Positions 9,453 to 28,880 of a DNA stretch of 64,000 bases are shown piece by piece. The DNA is from a virus. Where the stretch lies: the IMG/VR virus record IMGVR_UViG_3300045988_120604; one strand, written 5' to 3'. Made by a program: the position numbers and the translations under genes. The notes under the pieces were generated by a model. The model was not told the origin of the DNA, searched no databases, and saw only the letters and a list, made by a program, of their open reading frames with translations. How positions within the stretch are numbered: position 1 is the first letter of the stretch; each line of letters begins with the position of its first letter.

Positions 9453-12293
9453 ATGAAATTACGAATCATAAAAAATCGTCCGATATTCGCTCCTGGCGGT
9501 AGTGTTCAGGATAAGAAACAGGATATTAATGTATCCTCTACTCAGCCTATTCTTGATTATGGAACGCCTGTTAATAAATGGGGTGAATCTGATATTCAGA
9601 ATATATATATGCCTTCTGATGTGATTTTAGAAACAGAGGAGGGGGAGATAAATCCATTTAGTAGTATGCCTACATCCGATCCGTTTTTTGAAAATCATGA
9701 TGCAGGATATGCAGGATATCTCGCTGATAATAGGGGTATGGTTAAAAACGTAGAGAAATCAGTCGTTGATAATGCAATGAATGTAGGTGGTGTTGATGCT
9801 GATTCCTCTAAAGAAAAACGTTCCCAAGATGGTAATCCTCTTGATCCTATGACTACCCCATATTATTCACCCGATCTAACCGGCAGAGCTCAAATGTTCG
9901 GTACAAGTCTTGGCCGGATAAGAGCCGGTAATAAGATCGGTGCTAATGTGGCTCAAGCTACCTTGTCTGGTGTTAGTTTAGGATTAGGTCTTACCCGTAA
10001 TATCATGGGAGCTTCATCTGCTGCGTATGCAGCCAGCAGAGACGAGCAGGCAGCGAGGGAAAAACTTGCCAAGGAGCGCCGGCAGCAATTCATCAAGTGG
10101 GAACGTGAAGGTGGTGGCGTGAATTTAGGTAACGGTCAGAAGATAGATACGTCTGATATGACCGGCGAATATATTTATCCTCTTCCCAAGTCTATGGAAG
10201 ATGCTGCGAATGTAGAGATAGAGAAAGGCGAGTACGTGCTGACTCCTGACTCCGTAGGGCCTATGGAAGCCAAAGGGAACAGACATGAAAATGGTGGCAC
10301 TCCGGTTGATTTGCCAGAGGCTTATATTGTTTCCGATTATCGTAAGATAGATGATGAGTTTGCCTCTTACGTTAGAGAAAATTATGGTATTAAGGCAACG
10401 TCAAAAGATACATACGCTACACTCCTTGATCGATATAAGAAGAAGATTGGTTTGTCTGATAAGTACGAAGATCAGGAGCGTGTATATAAGAGATTAGAGA
10501 AAAATGAAGATGTAAAAGACAAAAACACATCTAATCTTAATGCTTCTATTCTTTCCAAGTACGTCAATGAAAACCAGAAAGAGATAGACGAGCTTGAAGC
10601 ACAATTTCGTTCTTTCGCTGAAATCGTTTATGGCAAACAGGAAGAATCTAAGCGTAACGAGAAGATGGATGCTTTTTTCAGGGATGGCGGGGTTGTTGAT
10701 CTGAATCAGGTAAAGAAACAAGCTAAGGCTTTTAATATTGCAGAATCAGATGCTAAGAACTGGATATATGACGAGTATGTTAAGCAAACCAGAAAAATGG
10801 CTGAAGGTGGACCTACTCAGAAGGAGCTGGAGGAGCTTAGAAAGAATGCTATCGGCTACAATAAGCTTATCAATCAGTTATTTGGACGAACTCTTAATAT
10901 GACTGTATCTGATGTTAGTGGTCGTGAGCAGATTCTTAATCCTGATTCCAGTGTCAATGCCAACCAGAATCTCCAACATAGAAGCAATTTAGGATACGGC
11001 AGGGTAAATGATAAGGCGGTATCTAATTTGCTCGACGTAAACCGATGGGCTAACAAGTACAATACGGATGGTGATTTTGATACAGAAGGTTTCCAGAAAG
11101 GATACAACAGGCAATTAAATGCATTGTGGGCGTTAGCTGATGTAGGCGCTATTACGAATGCTGATGCAGCCAAGAAATTCAGAGATGAATACGGATTCTG
11201 GGGCCAGGACGCCGGAAGCTACGGAGGGAATCAGGCTTATAATTCATTTGCCGTAGATGATAAGTTTGGTCAGACAACAGCTACTCGTTCTTATTATGGG
11301 TTGGACGTTGTTTCGGCAGAGCAAAAAAGATTGTTAAACGAAAAAGGAATAAAGAATTATGTTGACTTATTTGGTGATAAATCTGATGCCGCTAAGAAGA
11401 TTCTGGGCTCCGATTATAATAAGTTTGTTGCTTTAAGAGATAGTGGGTTAATGCCGGAAATAGACTTCGTTCTTGAGTCTGTTAAACCAGAAATGAAGCC
11501 TATTGAGGCCGGTCCCATAGCACCAGGCCTTACACCGCCTAAGATTGGATCTCCTGGAAGGATAGAGGTAAAACCGAAAGCAAGTACGCCTACGACTGCA
11601 ACCGACACCGATACAGAGGAGGTGGTTGAAGACAACGGACCTAAAGGACAGGGCAGACCGGCGGCGTTCGGTCCTATCTTCCCGGAGATGCTGAGAACGC
11701 TCGATACAGGCTTGGAGATAGAGGGATTGGAAAGGCATCAGGCTCCGAGAATAGATCCGGTTCTGCAATCTGCTGATCAGTATATCAACGAGCTCAACCG
11801 CGCGACATCGGCTCAGTTGGACGCAGTAGGTGACGTGCCCGACTCCCAGCGCTCTGCTATTCTGGCTAATATGAACGCCATAGCCGGAAGCAATATAGCC
11901 AAGTACATTAACGAAGTAAATTTCAATAACGCAAGGCAAATAAACGAAGCTGATAGATTCAATGAAATGGCTTATGTTCAGACAGACGATAAGAACATAG
12001 CGGAAAGGCAACGTTATGAATCTGGGTTATTGAAGGCTATGGCTATAAGGGATGAAAATCTTGCTCGTTATTATGATAGCATAAACAGCGAAATACAGAA
12101 TAAGTTCAATGTTCGTACATCGTTGAATACCATAGCTTCCATAGCTCCGAATATGAGAATGCTTCCAAGTGGCCAAATTATTTACGTTCAAGGTAATCAG
12201 GATGTGATGAATATGGGTGATTATTCTACACCTTACTTGAGAAGTTTAAATGAAGAAGATGACGAAAATAAAAGAAGAAGGAGGACCAAATAG
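9453..12293 (+). CDS. Large virion/structural protein (~947 aa)
   Basis: Long ORF with a likely start at MKLRIIK (ATG 9453); the track starts at 9381. Confidence 0.6.
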   Translation: MKLRIIKNRPIFAPGGSVQDKKQDINVSSTQPILDYGTPVNKWGESDIQNIYMPSDVILETEEGEINPFSSMPTSDPFFENHDAGYAGYLADNRGMVKNVEKSVVDNAMNVGGVDADSSKEKRSQDGNPLDPMTTPYYSPDLTGRAQMFGTSLGRIRAGNKIGANVAQATLSGVSLGLGLTRNIMGASSAAYAASRDEQAAREKLAKERRQQFIKWEREGGGVNLGNGQKIDTSDMTGEYIYPLPKSMEDAANVEIEKGEYVLTPDSVGPMEAKGNRHENGGTPVDLPEAYIVSDYRKIDDEFASYVRENYGIKATSKDTYATLLDRYKKKIGLSDKYEDQERVYKRLEKNEDVKDKNTSNLNASILSKYVNENQKEIDELEAQFRSFAEIVYGKQEESKRNEKMDAFFRDGGVVDLNQVKKQAKAFNIAESDAKNWIYDEYVKQTRKMAEGGPTQKELEELRKNAIGYNKLINQLFGRTLNMTVSDVSGREQILNPDSSVNANQNLQHRSNLGYGRVNDKAVSNLLDVNRWANKYNTDGDFDTEGFQKGYNRQLNALWALADVGAITNADAAKKFRDEYGFWGQDAGSYGGNQAYNSFAVDDKFGQTTATRSYYGLDVVSAEQKRLLNEKGIKNYVDLFGDKSDAAKKILGSDYNKFVALRDSGLMPEIDFVLESVKPEMKPIEAGPIAPGLTPPKIGSPGRIEVKPKASTPTTATDTDTEEVVEDNGPKGQGRPAAFGPIFPEMLRTLDTGLEIEGLERHQAPRIDPVLQSADQYINELNRATSAQLDAVGDVPDSQRSAILANMNAIAGSNIAKYINEVNFNNARQINEADRFNEMAYVQTDDKNIAERQRYESGLLKAMAIRDENLARYYDSINSEIQNKFNVRTSLNTIASIAPNMRMLPSGQIIYVQGNQDVMNMGDYSTPYLRSLNEEDDENKRRRRTK

Positions 12294-24969: not shown

Positions 24970-26545
24970 CATGTGTTTTCATACATTTGTGTGTTCTTTA
25001 GTTTTTAGATAGTCAAACTATTTGTTTATTTTATTAATAATGATCATATTTGTTATATAAATAATTAAAATGAAACTCGTTGAAAGACATATAGTTAAAG
25101 ACAATCGGTTTGAGGATATTTGCCTCAAATCAGGTTTGTTGTATAATTATGTTCTTTACAATATTCGTCAAGGAATTTTTTCTGGTAACTATCTTAAAGA
25201 GTTTGAGCTTTCAAGCAAACTTTGTAAAGAAAACCAATTTGACTTCAGGAATTTACCTAATCATGTTTCACAGCAGGTGATTAAACAGGTATTTAAAAAC
25301 ATAAAATCCTGGATGAAACTCAAGAAAGATTTTGAAAAGAATCCTTCAAAATACGGTAATCATCGTCCACATCTTCCTTCATACAAACGAGGTAAAAAAC
25401 AAAACATTTTTGTTTTTACTAATTGTGATTGCAGGATAAAAGATGATGGTTATATCCATTTTGTCAAAAACACAATTAAACCGATCAAAACGAATATAAA
25501 GAAAGATGAATTAAAACAAGTTAGAATCATACCTCAAGCCACCTGCTATGTAGTAGAGGTAGTTTATGAAAGAAAGGAAACTGATCTTAGTTTAGATAAA
25601 GACAATTTTCTTTCGATTGATTTAGGATTGAATAATTTATGTTCATGTATTAGTAATGTGGAAATCAGTTCTTTCATTATAAACGGACGGGTTATAAAAT
25701 CAGTAAATCAGTGGTACAATAAGAAGAAGGCTAAGTTGATGTCTTTTGTTGGTAATAAGGGAACTTCAAATAAGATTAAAAGGATTACTTTATTACGAAA
25801 CTGTTGGATAGAAGATAAGTTGCATAAGATCAGTAGATACATTGTAGACTTTTGTAAATCTAACAATATAGGAACAATCATCATTGGATTAAACAAAGAA
25901 TGGAAAAACAAGATAAATATTGGTAAACGAAATAATCAACATTTTGTTTTTATTCCTCATTCAAAGTTAATAGATAAGATTGTTTACAAAGCGAAGCTTT
26001 TAGGAATTAACGTTGTTATTCATGAAGAATCTTATACATCAAAGATCGATCATCTTGCTTTTGAACCTCTAAAGAAACAGGAATCCTACTTAGGAAAAAG
26101 GGAGAAACGTGGATTGTTCCAAAGTTCAGTTGGAAAGTTAATCAATGCAGATATCAATGGAGCTATTGGGATAGCAAGAAAAGTAATCGGTGATTCTTTT
26201 ATCAAAAAGATAATCGATAGTGGATTTGTGTTTAATCCAGTTAGATTAAATATTTTGTAATATAAGATTGAATCTAATAAATAAAATGAGTAATTTTAAT
26301 AACATTTAAGTTTTTCATGGTATTAGTTTATATTAGTGTAGATCAGGGTTCGCAGTGATGCGGGCCCTGGTTTGATTTAAAAAGTATTAAAATATTTGCT
26401 ATTTAAGATCCTGTTCCTATCTCTGTTCCAGAAACAATGAACAACGAGATCCCACCTCTGGTTGTTTGATGTTGAAAGATATTTTTGGCTCATTAGGGTT
26501 TGTCATAGTGGAATCTGACATTCTCTTTTGGGCCTATTTTTTTTA
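24970..26545 (+). mobile_element. IS605-like tnpB-only element; boundaries not resolved
   Basis: tnpB plus a 287-bp structured non-coding tail. No terminal inverted repeats detected for this copy. Confidence 0.4.
25070..26260 (+). CDS. tnpB: IS200/IS605-family TnpB (OrfB) RNA-guided nuclease homolog, tnpA-less
   Basis: RuvC-I SIDLGLNNL (D), RuvC-II HEESYTSK (E), RuvC-III NADINGAIGIARK (D). The Zn-finger cysteines normally found between RuvC-II and RuvC-III are absent. Confidence 0.85.
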   Translation: MKLVERHIVKDNRFEDICLKSGLLYNYVLYNIRQGIFSGNYLKEFELSSKLCKENQFDFRNLPNHVSQQVIKQVFKNIKSWMKLKKDFEKNPSKYGNHRPHLPSYKRGKKQNIFVFTNCDCRIKDDGYIHFVKNTIKPIKTNIKKDELKQVRIIPQATCYVVEVVYERKETDLSLDKDNFLSIDLGLNNLCSCISNVEISSFIINGRVIKSVNQWYNKKKAKLMSFVGNKGTSNKIKRITLLRNCWIEDKLHKISRYIVDFCKSNNIGTIIIGLNKEWKNKINIGKRNNQHFVFIPHSKLIDKIVYKAKLLGINVVIHEESYTSKIDHLAFEPLKKQESYLGKREKRGLFQSSVGKLINADINGAIGIARKVIGDSFIKKIIDSGFVFNPVRLNIL

Positions 26546-26547
26546 TT
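26200..26547 (+). ncRNA. Candidate omega-RNA (reRNA) scaffold / right-end region of the tnpB element
   Basis: By established TnpB biology, the guide RNA derives from the 3' end of tnpB plus the right end. The region has GC-rich hairpins such as cagggttcgcagtgatgcgggccctg (26345-26370). No homology check is possible here. Confidence 0.3.
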
Positions 26548-27426
26548 ATGGATAAAGTTTCTGTTTTTGAAAGTTCAGATTTTGGAGAAATTCGTGTCAT
26601 GGTTATAAACGATCAGCCTTGGTTCGTGGGTAGTGATATAGCATCAGCCCTTGGTTATTCAAATGCTTCTAAAGCTGTTTCTGCTCATGTTGATGAAGAA
26701 GATATCGACAGGATATTACTCACTGATTTAGAGCGCTTTACCCAAAATGGGAAAAGCAGAATAAATAATTCTAAAGTAATGATAATCAACGAGTCAGGTG
26801 TTTATAGCTTGATATTATCATCTAAGCTTGATTCAGCAAAGAAATTTAAGAAATGGGTAACATCTGAGGTTCTTCCTTCTATTCGTAAAACAGGAGGATA
26901 CAAAACAAGTCCAGGCGGCAAGGGGATTTTGGTTCCTGATTTTTCCAATCCAGCAGAGGCAGCAAGGGCCTGGGCTGATCAGTACGAAGCTGCCCAAAGA
27001 GCTATAGCTGAAAAGTCGCAGGCAGAGGCAGAGAAGCAACAAGCTTTGAAAACAATAGAAGAGCATAAGCCTGATGTGGAATTTGCCGAGTCTTTTAGGA
27101 AGGTAGCCCATAATAATATGTGGTTGATTCGTGATATTGCTAAAAAGTTAGAACAGAATGGAATCATCATCGCCGAAAAGAATCTTCGATCATTTCTTGA
27201 AGAAGCTAAGTTTATGTTTAGAAACGGTCTTGGAAAATGGGAACTATATAGTAATGTTGTAGCTAAAGGATATGGAGTATATAGATCTTATTTTGTTGAT
27301 AAATATTCTGGTGAAAGAGTTAATCAACAAACTATCTACATGACAGGATCTGGATACGAAGTGACCCTCAATGGCATAAAAGGAAAACTCAAAAATGTGT
27401 TTCTAAAATATGGCAAGTTTGCTTAA
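26548..27426 (+). CDS. Bro-N domain antirepressor-like protein with a KilA-C/ANT-like C-terminal region
   Basis: N-terminal FGEIRVMVINDQPWFVGSDIASALGYSNASKAVSAHVDEED closely matches the Bro-N consensus (compare P22 Ant). Confidence 0.8.
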   Translation: MDKVSVFESSDFGEIRVMVINDQPWFVGSDIASALGYSNASKAVSAHVDEEDIDRILLTDLERFTQNGKSRINNSKVMIINESGVYSLILSSKLDSAKKFKKWVTSEVLPSIRKTGGYKTSPGGKGILVPDFSNPAEAARAWADQYEAAQRAIAEKSQAEAEKQQALKTIEEHKPDVEFAESFRKVAHNNMWLIRDIAKKLEQNGIIIAEKNLRSFLEEAKFMFRNGLGKWELYSNVVAKGYGVYRSYFVDKYSGERVNQQTIYMTGSGYEVTLNGIKGKLKNVFLKYGKFA

Positions 27427-27455
27427 GTTTATTTACAGGTAGTGTTTTAAAAGAA

Positions 27456-28711
27456 GGTGATTATATACCACTTTACACCAAAAGCGTAAAGTAATACACA
27501 TTTATACGGAAATTCGTACCGGGTTACACCAAAACCCTCTACCTTCTGGTAACATCGTTACATCAAAGGATTCTTTTTCCGATTTACGGATGATGTTAAA
27601 AGCACCATTGATATCAGCATTAATTGTCTTACCAGAAGAGGTTTTAAACAATCCTCGTTTAATCCTTCTTCCTTTGTAAGATTCATGTTTGCAAATCCGT
27701 TCATTATCTAAAAAGCTACATTTTGAAGTATAAGATTCTTCAACGATCTTAACATTTATTCCTTCTAATGTTGCTTTATAAGATATCATTGAAATAAACA
27801 TATTAAAAGGAATAGATACAAAGTTCTGATTATTTCGTTTTCCGATATTGATCTCTTGTTTCCAGCATTTGTTATGACCGATTATGATCGTATTAATACC
27901 ATTGGAAACTACATGATTAACCAATATTCTACTTGCTTTATGCAGATAGTCTTTGATCTTGTTATTCCTTTTGTCGGTTAATGACCTTATTTGTTTTGAA
28001 ATCTGTTTATTGTCTTTTAACTTAGATTTTAAGAATGCTAACCTTTTGTTATAATATTGGTTAATAGACTTTAGTGGTCTACCATTGATGATAAAACAAG
28101 AACCGTTGTTAGAAACACAAGATGCTAAATTATCTAATCCTATGTCGATGCCAAGATAGTTTCCATTATCTGACATAAGATTCTTTTCCTTCTTGTTGTA
28201 AACTATTTCAAGAACAATATACCCATTCTTAGGAATGAATCTAAGTTGTTGAATATTTTGTTTATTGGTTCTTGTGGTGAAAGAAAATTGCTTTGGTAAC
28301 TTAACAATGCCTTGTTTTATCCATTTTTGAGAAAAAGCATTTGTTGCAAAAACAGCAGGAAACAAACCACCCTTGTTGAGCAACCGGTGCTGGTAAAGCA
28401 CGATAGTCAACATCATTTTCTGTTCTTAACTTCTTTTCAAGAGAATAGTAGTTTAGGTACTTATACTTTACAGTATTATCATCCTTGTATTGAAAATAAT
28501 ACTGTCTAACAACATATAACCCTTTATTGTATAAGTTTTTACACTTATGCAATAGATCATAAAGTTCATTGTAATAAACAGAACTTGGTTTGATCGTATG
28601 TTGTTCGACTAATCTCATGACACAAATATAGAAATTATTATTTATAAAATTATTATTTATATATGAAAACAAATTGGCGTATTTGTGGTGTAAAGTTGTA
28701 TATAATTACCT
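27456..28711 (-). mobile_element. tnpB element bounded by ~24-bp imperfect inverted repeats (IR-L 27456-27479 ggtgattatataccactttacacc; IR-R 28688-28711 ggtgtaaagttgtatataattacc)
   Basis: 22/24 identity between the reverse complement of IR-L and IR-R. Similarity extends into flanking ttttggtg/tttgtggtg. Confidence 0.65.
27502..28672 (-). pseudogene. tnpB: IS200/IS605-family tnpB split by a +/-1 frameshift near 28385-28400 (N-terminal 123-aa ORF 28301..28672 plus C-terminal 304-aa ORF 27502..28416)
   Basis: The N-terminal ORF (MRLVEQH...DYRALPAPVAQQ) and the C-terminal ORF (...AVFATNAFSQKWIKQ...LGIDIGLDNL...EESYTSK...NADINGAFNIIRK) align co-linearly with the plus-strand TnpB but sit in different frames. 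The RuvC D-E-D triad is present; two Cys remain in the Zn-finger region. Confidence 0.65.
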
Positions 28712-28880
28712 AAAGATGTTAAAAATTGGCTCGAATCTCTACCAAAGATCTGAACCTATTTTTTTTAATACCAGGCCCGATTCGATTTTAACGTATCGGG
28801 TTTTTATTTTAATTCATATTGTTTTATTTTAAATCTAATTAATTCATGAATGTCGTACTTTTGTTGAAAAAGTATTCTAT

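Follow-up and report, generated by a model that had tools for sequence, protein, structure and literature searches.

The window, i.e., the whole stretch of 64 kb of viral DNA that was analyzed, contained a 1255-bp unit (27456..28710, minus strand) consisting of tnpB and an ωRNA-like region, the limits of which were set by homology and by unrelated flanks. Both ends of this unit carried a 24-mer, one on the tnpB 3' side (RE, ...ATACCAC... type; 27456..27479, minus strand) and one on the tnpB 5' side (LE, ...ATACAAC... type; 28687..28710, plus strand), the two being inverted and complementary at 22 of 24 positions. A previous reading, made from the sequence only, had rightly reported these repeats, their orientation, the position of the left arm, and a unit of approximately 1.26 kb, but its right arm (28688-28711) and the end coordinate of the unit needed correction. 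A repeat search lengthened the inverted repeat to 29 nt at 90% (27455-27483 and 28683-28711), extending it inward to 27483 at the RE and to 28683 at the LE; the similarity between ttttggtg and tttgtggtg that had been ascribed to the flanks does exist, but represents this inner extension. When a degenerate 24-mer (up to three mismatches) was used as a query, these two sites were the only matches in 64 kb, and 100 dinucleotide-preserving shuffles yielded none; no such inverted-repeat match is expected by chance. As the 24-mer is not self-complementary, the repeats are true inverted termini. Adjacent to the unit, positions 25011-26303 held a genuine classical tnpB element, with neither inverted termini nor a target duplication.

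In the window copy, tnpB was split into two minus-strand ORFs (28301-28672 and 27502-28416). The C-terminal fragment (27502..28416), the homologous frame of which begins at ...GLFPAVF, contained a RuvC-like OrfB_IS605 domain (PF01385, E = 2.6e-22) and a Cas12f1-like TNB domain (PF07282, E = 4e-13). The N-terminal fragment (28301..28618, minus strand), assigned from the ORF list and an alignment to WOZ57293.1, the 407-aa TnpB of crAssE-Sib, starts with an ATG at 28618 (MRLVEQH...) and goes out of frame past a deletion. This frameshifting deletion of 107 bp (alignment columns 979-1085) has its junction at 28374..28380 on the minus strand, where the two BLAST pieces (27456-28380 and 28374-28710) meet. 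Judged by its reading frames, the window tnpB is a pseudogene. Its stop codon lies 46 nt from the element end. Upstream of tnpB, the LE subterminal non-coding region (28619..28686, minus strand), delimited by end sequences and the alignment, forms an imperfect palindrome in the intact copies; in the window copy, it carries a 13-bp insertion.

Homology of the unit to the crAssE-Sib copy (90.8% identity, with edges at GGTG...CACC) and to more than 50 IMG/VR copies started and stopped exactly at the repeats, the flanks being unrelated, and homology ended precisely at the repeats in over 100 loci; the majority of the viral loci were drawn from one large dataset, and viral counts are to be read as minimum values. 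The exact bounding of more than 50 copies bears out the earlier claim that the repeats delimit a mobile unit carrying only tnpB, and both repeats accompanied tnpB in these copies, as a test of co-inheritance showed. In the paper on crAssE-Sib, only two TnpB genes are mentioned. Intact relatives of the unit were 1347-1350 bp long. Their TnpB matched NCBIfam guided_TnpB (NF040570, E = 8e-54) over its full length and displayed the motifs GIDIGLD, VEESYTSK, and INADINGA. A phmmer search of TnpB against PDB sequences gave zero matches at E ≤ 1e-3, so that the catalytic residues were judged by motifs and family models. Within the family, dN/dS of TnpB was 0.06-0.13 at dS up to 1.2, a range indicative of strong purifying selection on the TnpB of the units bounded by inverted repeats. 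At least three TnpB lineages were found on one set of ends, and in all three tnpB reads outward through a terminus.

These ends belong, as terminal inverted repeats, to a DDE (cut-and-paste) transposon of the IS1595 family in Bacteroidota and crAss-like phages. The same ends bounded 2.8-3.9-kb units encoding a 307-aa IS1595 transposase (L044, L014, L025, L117, and L118), as well as many MITEs. The transposase of these units matched NCBIfam transpos_IS1595 (NF033547, E = 7e-57) and Pfam DDE_Tnp_IS1595 (PF12762, E = 3e-42). Compared with the ends of the reference tnpB unit of crAssE-Sib, the ends of the transposase units were identical at 24/24 and 23/24 positions; in the window, 23/24 positions agreed both between the RE repeat and its counterpart in the transposase-bearing units and between the LE repeat and their transposase-proximal end. 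Among the 76 bacterial loci listed, the same ends bounded IS1595 ISs, with transposases 43-85% identical, and MITEs, and none of these 76 loci held a TnpB between the ends. Perfect 8-bp target duplications surrounded tnpB units at six independent sites, with 7/8 matching positions at a seventh site, and the transposase unit L044 was likewise flanked by a perfect one; in the bacterial relatives, the 8-bp duplication occurred in 21 of the 27 end pairs. A clean duplication was absent from many copies, including the window copy. Thus, inverted termini and 8-bp target duplications make the arrangement atypical for IS200/IS605, as had been claimed, and of the three origins then proposed for the repeats, the ends of a different tnpB vehicle with terminal inverted repeats was the sole correct one, this vehicle being an IS1595-family DDE transposon. 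No transposase gene was found in the unit or elsewhere in the 64-kb window, so the tnpB unit is non-autonomous. The units with tnpB and those with the transposase co-occurred in the same phage contigs, and no single unit encoding both proteins was present among the loci listed; hence, the partnership between TnpB and transposase rests on identical ends and co-occurrence. Given these two features and the target duplications, the IS1595 transposase probably binds and moves the ends of the tnpB units.

The 3' region of the unit showed an ωRNA-like scaffold, the tested 125-nt 3' part of which (27456..27580, minus strand) comprised five helices according to RNAalifold, pair counts, and folding. In the last helix, 27485-27500 pairs with 27462-27477, the latter lying within the terminal repeat. 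In the alignment (RNAalifold and pair counts), 96% of the cells at paired positions were paired, versus 36-56% in slid registers, and 11 pairs showed double-sided (compensatory) changes, versus 3.7±1.6 in shuffles (0/500). The window sequence itself folded in this region with z = -4.5. The G·U pairs make the structure specific to the sense strand. It was kept in tnpB-less MITEs, and the terminal repeat covaried with the upstream arm in L061, L013, L050, and the 83% subfamily. Neither a whole-window Rfam search at gathering thresholds nor one with permissive settings over 24.8-28.9 kb gave a meaningful family, and a tRNA gene search found none. Purifying selection on TnpB and a conserved, covarying RNA indicate that the TnpB/ωRNA module is functional. 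Furthermore, since the last helix is built from the terminal repeat, the guide should be the flank; by structure and geometry, the scaffold would end and the guide would begin at this point.

The flank beyond the RE differed at every site. The predicted guide-encoding flank in the window (27436..27455, minus strand; sense TTCTTTTAAAACACTACCTG) was assigned on this site-to-site variation and on the geometry of the structure, and its first 8 nt are presumed to be one copy of the target 8-mer. At the LE side (28711..28723, minus strand), flank statistics pointed to the 8-mer CATCTTTA at 28711-28718 and to TTTAA at 28719-23, the latter standing 5' of CATCTTTA on the sense strand. Its final TAA (28719-28721) is a candidate TAM of the T-W-A type, proposed from flank sequences. 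Both crAssE-Sib and a minimum of 119 loci had the corresponding empty site, ...TTTAA CATCTTTA TATTTAGGG.... For the first TnpB lineage, T-W-A occurred 5' of the 8-mer at 14 of 19 sites, versus 7/21 for phage tnpB-less ends (p = 0.014) and 6/42 for bacterial ends (p = 1e-5), and at intact sites it was seen at the LE in 7/7 cases versus 2/7 at the RE. Sites of the third TnpB lineage had A-A-A instead (4/4, versus 2/19 in the first lineage; p = 0.002); these samples of 19, 21, and 4 sites are small. The last 4 nt ahead of the left end were not conserved across copies. As A at -9 and T at -8 were common at tnpB-less ends too, part of the T-W-A signal is the transposase's own AT-rich target preference. 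A symmetric preference of the transposase as the sole cause of T-W-A was ruled out by the LE/RE asymmetry and the lineage dependence, although it still contributes. The lineage-specific motif, located directly before the duplicated 8-mer on its 5' side, is suggestive of a TAM and of homing to empty sites.

The window copy differed from this pattern, as its flanks (TAAAAGAA versus TAAAGATG) showed no 8-bp target duplication. The sequence-only reading had assumed an insertion 30 bp past the Bro-N stop; 29 nt actually separate the element from this stop (27426), and comparison with element-free genomes indicates that the event was not a simple insertion after Bro-N. Within the gap, 27437..27455 (plus strand) represents the 5' arm of the Bro-N intrinsic terminator (27437-27448) together with a portion of its loop; the 3' arm and T-run of this terminator are absent from the window, and element-free genomes read CAGGTAGTGTTTTAAAAGAA|TAAAAAAAACACTACCTTTTTTT there. 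Insertion-free homologs, including crAssE-Sib, had a Bro-N 3' region without the repeat; with both repeats also accompanying tnpB, the refuting condition set in the sequence-only reading did not hold. The two flanks correspond to two separate target sites located approximately 3.2 kb apart in crAssE-Sib, one in the loop of the Bro-N terminator and the other a site that is often occupied, and approximately 3.2 kb with seven genes of crAssE-Sib was missing from the window at the position of the element. Two copies may have recombined with each other, or an intramolecular transposition may have caused this loss. From its broken gene and chimeric flanks, the window copy is to be seen as a degenerate relic.

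The unit is probably a non-autonomous IS1595 derivative that is moved in trans and that carries TnpB and an ωRNA with a flank-derived guide as a homing cargo, the window copy being a relic of it. The terminal repeats would be the binding and cleavage sites of the 307-aa IS1595 transposase encoded elsewhere, i.e., by larger same-ended units in the same phage population and by Bacteroidota chromosomes, and this transposase would act in trans on the tnpB unit and yield the 8-bp target duplications. The ωRNA, co-transcribed with tnpB, would cross the 3'-side terminal repeat, as the 3' strand of its last helix, and enter the flank, the guide being made up of the duplicated 8-mer and the DNA beyond. 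In a related, insertion-free phage genome, the guide sequence would be contiguous and preceded by a short motif, T-W-A for this TnpB lineage, serving as TAM; TnpB could cut this empty site and recombinational repair would copy the element in, which would constitute homing between co-infecting phages. A more specific version is put forward tentatively, with slightly more doubt than conviction: the ends of one IS1595 transposon may have acquired the homing modules of at least three TnpB lineages, giving a two-enzyme element in which the repeat is the last guide-RNA helix, the guide starts with the 8-mer, and the TAM lies outside the other 8-mer copy. If this is true, the DDE transposase (in trans) would pick new sites, and TnpB, cutting empty alleles in co-infection, would spread the insertion in the phage population.

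Alternatively, TnpB may be a mere passenger spread by DDE transposition and phage recombination only, the motif reflecting transposase preference or sampling, with no RNA-guided homing. The phage tnpB-less ends raised in T-W-A (7/21), with their frequent A at -9 and T at -8, are consistent with this, and the chimeric flanks of many copies can be explained by recombination alone. In addition, it has been argued that DDE elements gain little from OMEGA systems, cut-and-paste excision already leaving a break, so that what is gained from TnpB is less evident than in IS605 (PMC13565253). Yet strong purifying selection combined with a conserved covarying RNA speaks for a functional module, the motif is asymmetric (LE 7/7 versus RE 2/7) and varies with the TnpB lineage on identical ends, and tnpB reads outward through the terminus in all three lineages, which together make a passenger role unlikely. 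A second possibility is that tnpB and the ωRNA form an independent IS605/IS607-like unit nested in an IS1595 MITE, with precise insertion and excision at ...TTTGTG|GTGTAAAG..., its guide being the terminal repeat and its targets IS1595 ends. The 98-102-bp MITEs L079 and L107 occupy sites that hold full copies in other genomes and share one common inner junction, while each matches its own subfamily, and the closest relatives outside the family, at 57% aa identity, are of the IS607 type with a resolvase gene. However, repeat positions 3-18 are base-paired in a covarying helix, unlike a guide, and the lineage-specific motif lies outside the element beside the 8-mer, not at the inner junction. 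Moreover, tnpB begins 2 nt from the supposed inner left end, leaving no space for a left-end structure, and neither a Y1 nor a serine TnpA accompanied these copies. A direct repeat (7/9) lies on both sides of the inner junction, where a long palindrome has its base, and this can explain recurrent deletion; internal deletions with other breakpoints occur frequently (L009, L027, L028, L065, and the window copy). Nesting is hence considered very unlikely.

The remaining two origins proposed in the sequence-only reading fared worse. That the repeats are primarily a phage regulatory module, i.e., a -10-like TATATAAT promoter or an operator flanking tnpB by coincidence, draws on the presence of TATATAAT in the repeat and on the possibility that a transposon end holds an outward-reading promoter. 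Bacteroidota promoters are not known to use a -10-like TATATAAT consensus. With just two copies in 64 kb, and with repeats that are the exact homology edges in over 100 loci and that bound bacterial MITEs with target duplications, such a primary role is unsupported and highly improbable. Similarly, a classical IS200/IS605 (IS1341-type) element with look-alike left and right subterminal hairpins would agree with the tnpB-only content and with a hairpin near each end, but almost no credence can be given to it: the 24-mer lacks self-complementarity, 8-bp target duplications flank copies of the unit, DDE transposase units and bacterial MITEs bear identical ends, and the true example next to the unit (25011-26303) shows neither feature.

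The IS1595 family, listed in ISfinder, is related to eukaryotic Merlin, and some members carry passenger genes. The unit resembles IS1595 ISs and MITEs in its terminal inverted repeats, 8-bp target duplications, and relation to a DDE transposase with an N-terminal zinc ribbon; it differs from these ISs in being without a transposase and in having as cargo an RNA-guided nuclease and a predicted guide RNA that would read out through the terminus. The TnpB/ωRNA (OMEGA) homing system was reportedly described by Karvelis in 2021 and Meers in 2023. With the IS200/IS605 group IS1341 and OMEGA systems, the unit shares tnpB-only content, an ωRNA-like structure overlapping the tnpB 3' end and, as predicted, a guide from one flank and a candidate TAM in the other. 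IS200/IS605 elements are without terminal inverted repeats or target duplication, whereas the unit has 24-29-nt inverted termini and an 8-bp duplication. Since no target is duplicated, the TAM abuts the left end in IS200/IS605; here, the candidate TAM is parted from the left end by the duplicated 8-mer. The closest TnpB relatives outside the clade bounded by inverted repeats (P0120, 57% aa identity) are of the IS607 type, with a resolvase gene overlapping the tnpB start and a right end 34 nt past the stop codon. The unit differs from the IS607 family in having TIRs and TSDs and no resolvase gene, as well as in the TnpB C-terminus and the 3' RNA region. Fanzor1 in eukaryotic DDE transposons is similar in being an OMEGA-type nuclease on TIR-bearing, TSD-generating, and often non-autonomous elements. 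In Fanzor1, the TAM includes the 5' TSD, and the 3' TSD lies inside the scaffold (PMC13565253), whereas the present data suggest a TAM outside the 5' copy of the 8-mer and a 3' copy that starts the guide. If so, the two-enzyme element would have a solution to the 'TSD problem' unlike that of Fanzor1.

The presence of TnpB on DDE/TIR transposons was already reported in 2023; the present family is an abundant variant, in crAss-like phages, of this rare kind of element. According to the parts consulted of Altae-Tran et al. (PNAS 2023; PMC10691335; summarized in PMC13565253), there are six DDE-associated TnpB branches, with inverted terminal repeats. In those passages, TnpB lies inside a transposon with symmetrical inverted ends, its 3' end being near one of them, and the ends of solo TnpB elements are almost the same as those on copies with a transposase, implying mobilization in trans (PMC10691335). 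The present units likewise had inverted terminal repeats, a TnpB 3' end less than 250 bp from the end, and ends shared with transposase copies. The DDE partners named in the main text are IS630, ISL2, and IS1031, IS1595 being unmentioned there (PMC10691335, PMC13565253), and a full-text literature search for an association of TnpB with IS1595 returned nothing relevant. As far as those elements are described in the parts consulted, the present ones differ in that the transposase never occurred in one unit with TnpB among the loci listed, and in the combination of at least three TnpB lineages on one end set with crAss-like phages as hosts. Likewise, a repeat serving as ωRNA stem and a motif-then-8-mer layout are features of the present units that the consulted parts of PMC10691335 do not describe.

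TnpB is the ancestor of Cas12, and its help to transposon persistence is understood mainly for IS605 and IS607, with scarless excision. Prokaryotic associations of TnpB with DDE transposons are said to be rare, and, given that DDE transposons duplicate their target, the rationale of these associations is hard to see. The family bounded by inverted repeats is abundant, with protein clusters of thousands of members in gut data, and its hosts, crAss-like phages, are among the commonest human gut viruses. As identical ends carry three TnpB lineages, no tnpB (MITEs), or a transposase, the family provides natural comparisons, and the position of the guide start relative to the target duplication, a TAM outside the duplication, and homing between co-infecting phages are directly testable with it. 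It also supplies compact TnpBs (approximately 400 aa) with candidate short AT-rich TAMs. Finally, these elements reshape the genomes of crAss-like phages, as illustrated by the window, which has lost approximately 3.2 kb and seven genes compared with crAssE-Sib.

The tnpB unit (27456-28710, minus strand; 1255 bp) is bounded by inverted repeats that are its genuine termini as a mobile element. The sequence-only reading had claimed two inverted 24-mers around tnpB, and both are present in inverted orientation; the arm 3' of the gene lies at 27456-27479, as described, whereas the arm 5' of the gene lies at 28687-28710, one base to the left of the 28688-28711 assigned to it. In a repeat search, the inverted repeat grows to 29 nt at 90% (27455-27483 and 28683-28711). 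A degenerate form of the 24-mer (at most three mismatches) matches the 64-kb window at these two arms only, and gave no match in 100 shuffles of the window sequence. Among GenBank phages, crAssE-Sib has the only close match to the unit, spanning window positions 27455-28710 exactly (90.8%); in the pairwise alignment, the likeness begins at GGTGATTATA and ends at TATAATTACC, and the sequences outside these points are unrelated. Scanning IMG/VR for the 24-mer yielded at least 119 stretches, the majority of the viral loci coming from one metagenome project. Among the matches listed, more than 50 are full tnpB-unit copies (1347-1350 bp), which form subfamilies at ~83%, 91-94%, and 99-100% identity and are all bounded by GGTG...CACC.

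The same 24-nt ends bound 2.8-3.9-kb units (loci L044, L014, L025, L117, and L118) that have only ~33-39 bp in common with the tnpB unit and encode a 307-aa protein matching NCBIfam transpos_IS1595 (E = 7e-57), Pfam DDE_Tnp_IS1595 (E = 3e-42), and, weakly and under the Pfam cutoff, the IS1595 zinc-ribbon model. Compared with the ends of the tnpB unit in its crAssE-Sib reference copy, theirs agree at 24/24 and 23/24 positions, and both types of unit have the ACAAC/ACCAC end asymmetry. At six independent sites, tnpB units lie between perfect 8-bp target duplications (7/8 at a seventh), and the transposase unit L044 is also flanked by an 8-bp duplication. In a bacterial survey with one genome per species, the end motif occurred in 76 loci, chiefly of Bacteroidota (Alistipes, Rikenella, Parabacteroides, Chryseobacterium, and others), where it bounds IS1595 insertion sequences (transposases 43-85% identical) and 130-300-bp MITEs; target duplications of at least 7/8 were found for 21 of the 27 bacterial end pairs, and no TnpB was found between the ends at any of the 76 loci. 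A chromosomal IS1595 copy of Parabacteroides is 87% identical at the DNA level to the phage transposase unit, which occurs in the same phage population as the tnpB unit and at times on the same contig. Because the ends are common to the transposase units and the window holds no IS1595 transposase gene, the tnpB unit can be classified from these comparisons as a non-autonomous IS1595-type element. The Parabacteroides IS1595 copy lies on the chromosome of the isolate Parabacteroides sp. AM08-6 (L247), and a 90%-identical TnpB occurs on a short contig assigned to Parabacteroides goldsteinii (L316; GCA_949386655.1), which together hint at Parabacteroides as the host of these epsilon crAss-like phages. 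Passenger genes in transposase units (L117:6000-9849, L044:179-3331, and L014:1973-5482) code for small lipoprotein- or outer-membrane-like proteins (TRL family, DUF5640, and a weak OMP beta-barrel match) that differ from copy to copy.

Intact TnpB copies match NCBIfam guided_TnpB over their full length (E = 8e-54) and are under strong purifying selection (dN/dS 0.06-0.13, dS up to ~1.2); the tnpB cargo is probably functional across the family. The final 125 nt of the sense strand fold into five helices with 36 pairs. When 15 divergent copies, two of them tnpB-less MITEs, are aligned, 96% of cells are paired, versus 36-56% for slid registers, and double-sided changes affect 11 pairs versus 3.7±1.6 in shuffles, 0 of 500 of which attained the observed value. 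The many G·U pairs restrict the structure to the sense strand; in the window, the fold of this region has z = -4.5. In the last helix, an upstream arm pairs with the terminal repeat (its positions 3-18), and the two sides covary, as in L061, where TATACAATTTTA pairs with TAAAATTGTATA. At the right terminus of L013 and L050, the repeat is changed from GTAAAGTGGTAT to GTAAAGTAATAC, the perfect complement of the upstream arm, as if copied across the hairpin through template switching or through selection for pairing. Only AUCACC separates the last helix from the flank, whose sequence differs at each site. The closest TnpB relatives outside the inverted repeat-bounded clade (57% amino acid identity) are of the IS607 type, with a resolvase gene overlapping tnpB, and have 34 nt between stop codon and right end, compared with 46 nt here. 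From the position of the last helix in the repeat, the site-variable flank, and this right-end distance, the boundary between scaffold and guide is predicted to lie at the outer edge of the repeat. MITEs of 324-331 bp with the same termini but without tnpB (L053:8777-9100 and 10289-10612; L077:7396-7726) keep the ωRNA-like structure through compensatory changes and may be guide-RNA-only satellites using TnpB in trans.

Two further TnpB lineages lie between the same IS1595 termini, each with its 3' end against a terminus. One (L024:8324-9655, L075:11900-13230, and L332-L339) has a canonical HTH_OrfB_IS605 N-terminus and a zinc finger, and its stop codon falls within the repeat; the other (L109:1186-3130) is 41% identical to the first lineage and uses the opposite end type. 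The termini also bound MITEs of 98-102 bp (L079:171-272 and L107:11781-11878), consisting of both termini plus the left subterminal palindrome. These occupy sites that hold full tnpB copies in other genomes, and each resembles its own subfamily, with an identical inner junction (TTTGTG|GTGTAAAG); they could stem either from repeated deletions guided by the palindrome or from the tnpB segment having been precisely lost or gained.

A candidate TAM, T-W-A, occupies the three sense-strand bases directly 5' of the left duplicated 8-mer at 14 of 19 independent tnpB-unit sites, and A is found at -9 in all 19; independence was judged from the flanks, and site numbers are small. The motif is less frequent at tnpB-less ends, both those of the same transposon in phages (7/21; p = 0.014) and bacterial ones (6/42; p = 1e-5), the background trinucleotide frequency being ~5%. 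At sites with intact duplications, it occurs on the left in 7/7 cases versus 2/7 on the right (p = 0.02). Part of this signal is accounted for by the AT-rich preference of the transposase itself. The strongest argument for a candidate TAM is a natural experiment, namely a motif that depends on the TnpB lineage on the same ends: the third, unrelated lineage (L024, L075, L332, and others) has A-A-A at the motif position in 4/4 independent sites, compared with 2/19 in the first lineage (p = 0.002). In the empty site, the motif, the 8-mer, and the right flank form one uninterrupted stretch, precisely the target expected for a flank-derived guide with a TAM, whereas the occupied site would match the guide over 8 nt only; this layout is compatible with an element that homes into empty alleles when phages co-infect. 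The right-side 8-mer is absent from some copies: L032 has lost TTGATTTA precisely, and in copies at the window's site (e.g., L089 and L003) CATCTTTATATTTAGGG is cut to CATTTAGGG. The left 8-mer is kept in both and ends in TTA, with the result that T-W-A still stands 5' of the empty-allele match to the new predicted flank-derived guide.

The window itself carries a degenerate copy. Its tnpB is dead and broken into two ORFs: relative to the 407-aa crAssE-Sib gene, 107 bp are missing, which accounts for the frameshift. In the RNA region, by contrast, a dozen other copies have exactly the sequence of the window copy. The window belongs to an epsilon crAss-like phage near crAssE-Sib (96.8% amino acid identity in a large structural protein), which is insertion-free at this locus; the sequence-only reading had proposed an empty-site comparison of this kind. 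Window positions 26304-27455 (Bro-N) align with 362-1519 of the crAssE-Sib locus L340, and those from 28711 on with L340 from 4726 on; in between, crAssE-Sib (96519-99725) has ~3.2 kb with seven annotated genes, including those for a 'spike protein/glycoprotein' and a DNA-binding protein, where the window has the 1255-bp element instead. The sequence flanking the right end comes from the loop of Bro-N's intrinsic terminator (CAGGTAGTGTTTTAAAAGAA|TAAAAAAAACACTACCTTTTTTT in intact genomes), the 3' arm of which is lost in the window; on the sense strand, this site reads TTA, TTCTTTTA, and AAACAC... in that order. Flanking the left end (...TTTAA CATCTTTA) is a site at which at least 119 loci lack an insertion and ~20 carry one. 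The two flanks come from different sites and 3.2 kb are missing; the window copy therefore either joins the ends of two insertions or arose by intramolecular transposition, the intervening DNA being lost in either case.

TnpB borne by DDE-type elements with terminal inverted repeats is an already known class. According to Altae-Tran et al. 2023 (PMC10691335), six DDE-associated TnpB branches have inverted terminal repeats, with the TnpB 3' end at most 250 bp from an end, and solo TnpBs have ends in common with transposase-bearing copies. A 2026 review (PMC13565253) names ISL2, IS630, and IS1031 as partner families, considers the TnpB-DDE association rare in prokaryotes, and describes a Fanzor1 TSD/TAM arrangement different from the one here. 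IS1595 was not found mentioned as a TnpB partner in the literature search or in the main text of PMC10691335, and the paper describing crAssE-Sib mentions no more than two TnpB genes. Possibly new are IS1595 as the chassis, crAss-like phages as the setting, three TnpB lineages on a common set of ends, the dual role of the terminal repeat as transposon end and predicted RNA helix, and the motif-then-8-mer layout.

A second tnpB (25011-26303, plus strand) is intact (396 aa) and 44% identical to the inverted repeat-bounded type. It belongs to a classical element without terminal inverted repeats or target duplication; L222, L115, and crAssE-Sib show its empty site (...TTTTTAGAT|TTAAGTTTTTCATGG). 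The window thus carries two TnpB elements with different mobility chassis 1.2 kb apart. Adjoining the right end of the classical element, a stretch at 26308-26381 (plus strand) that contains a GC-rich hairpin gives a weak match, below threshold, to the Rfam Bacteroidetes FopS sRNA (26.7 bits versus a gathering score of 56; E = 0.5).
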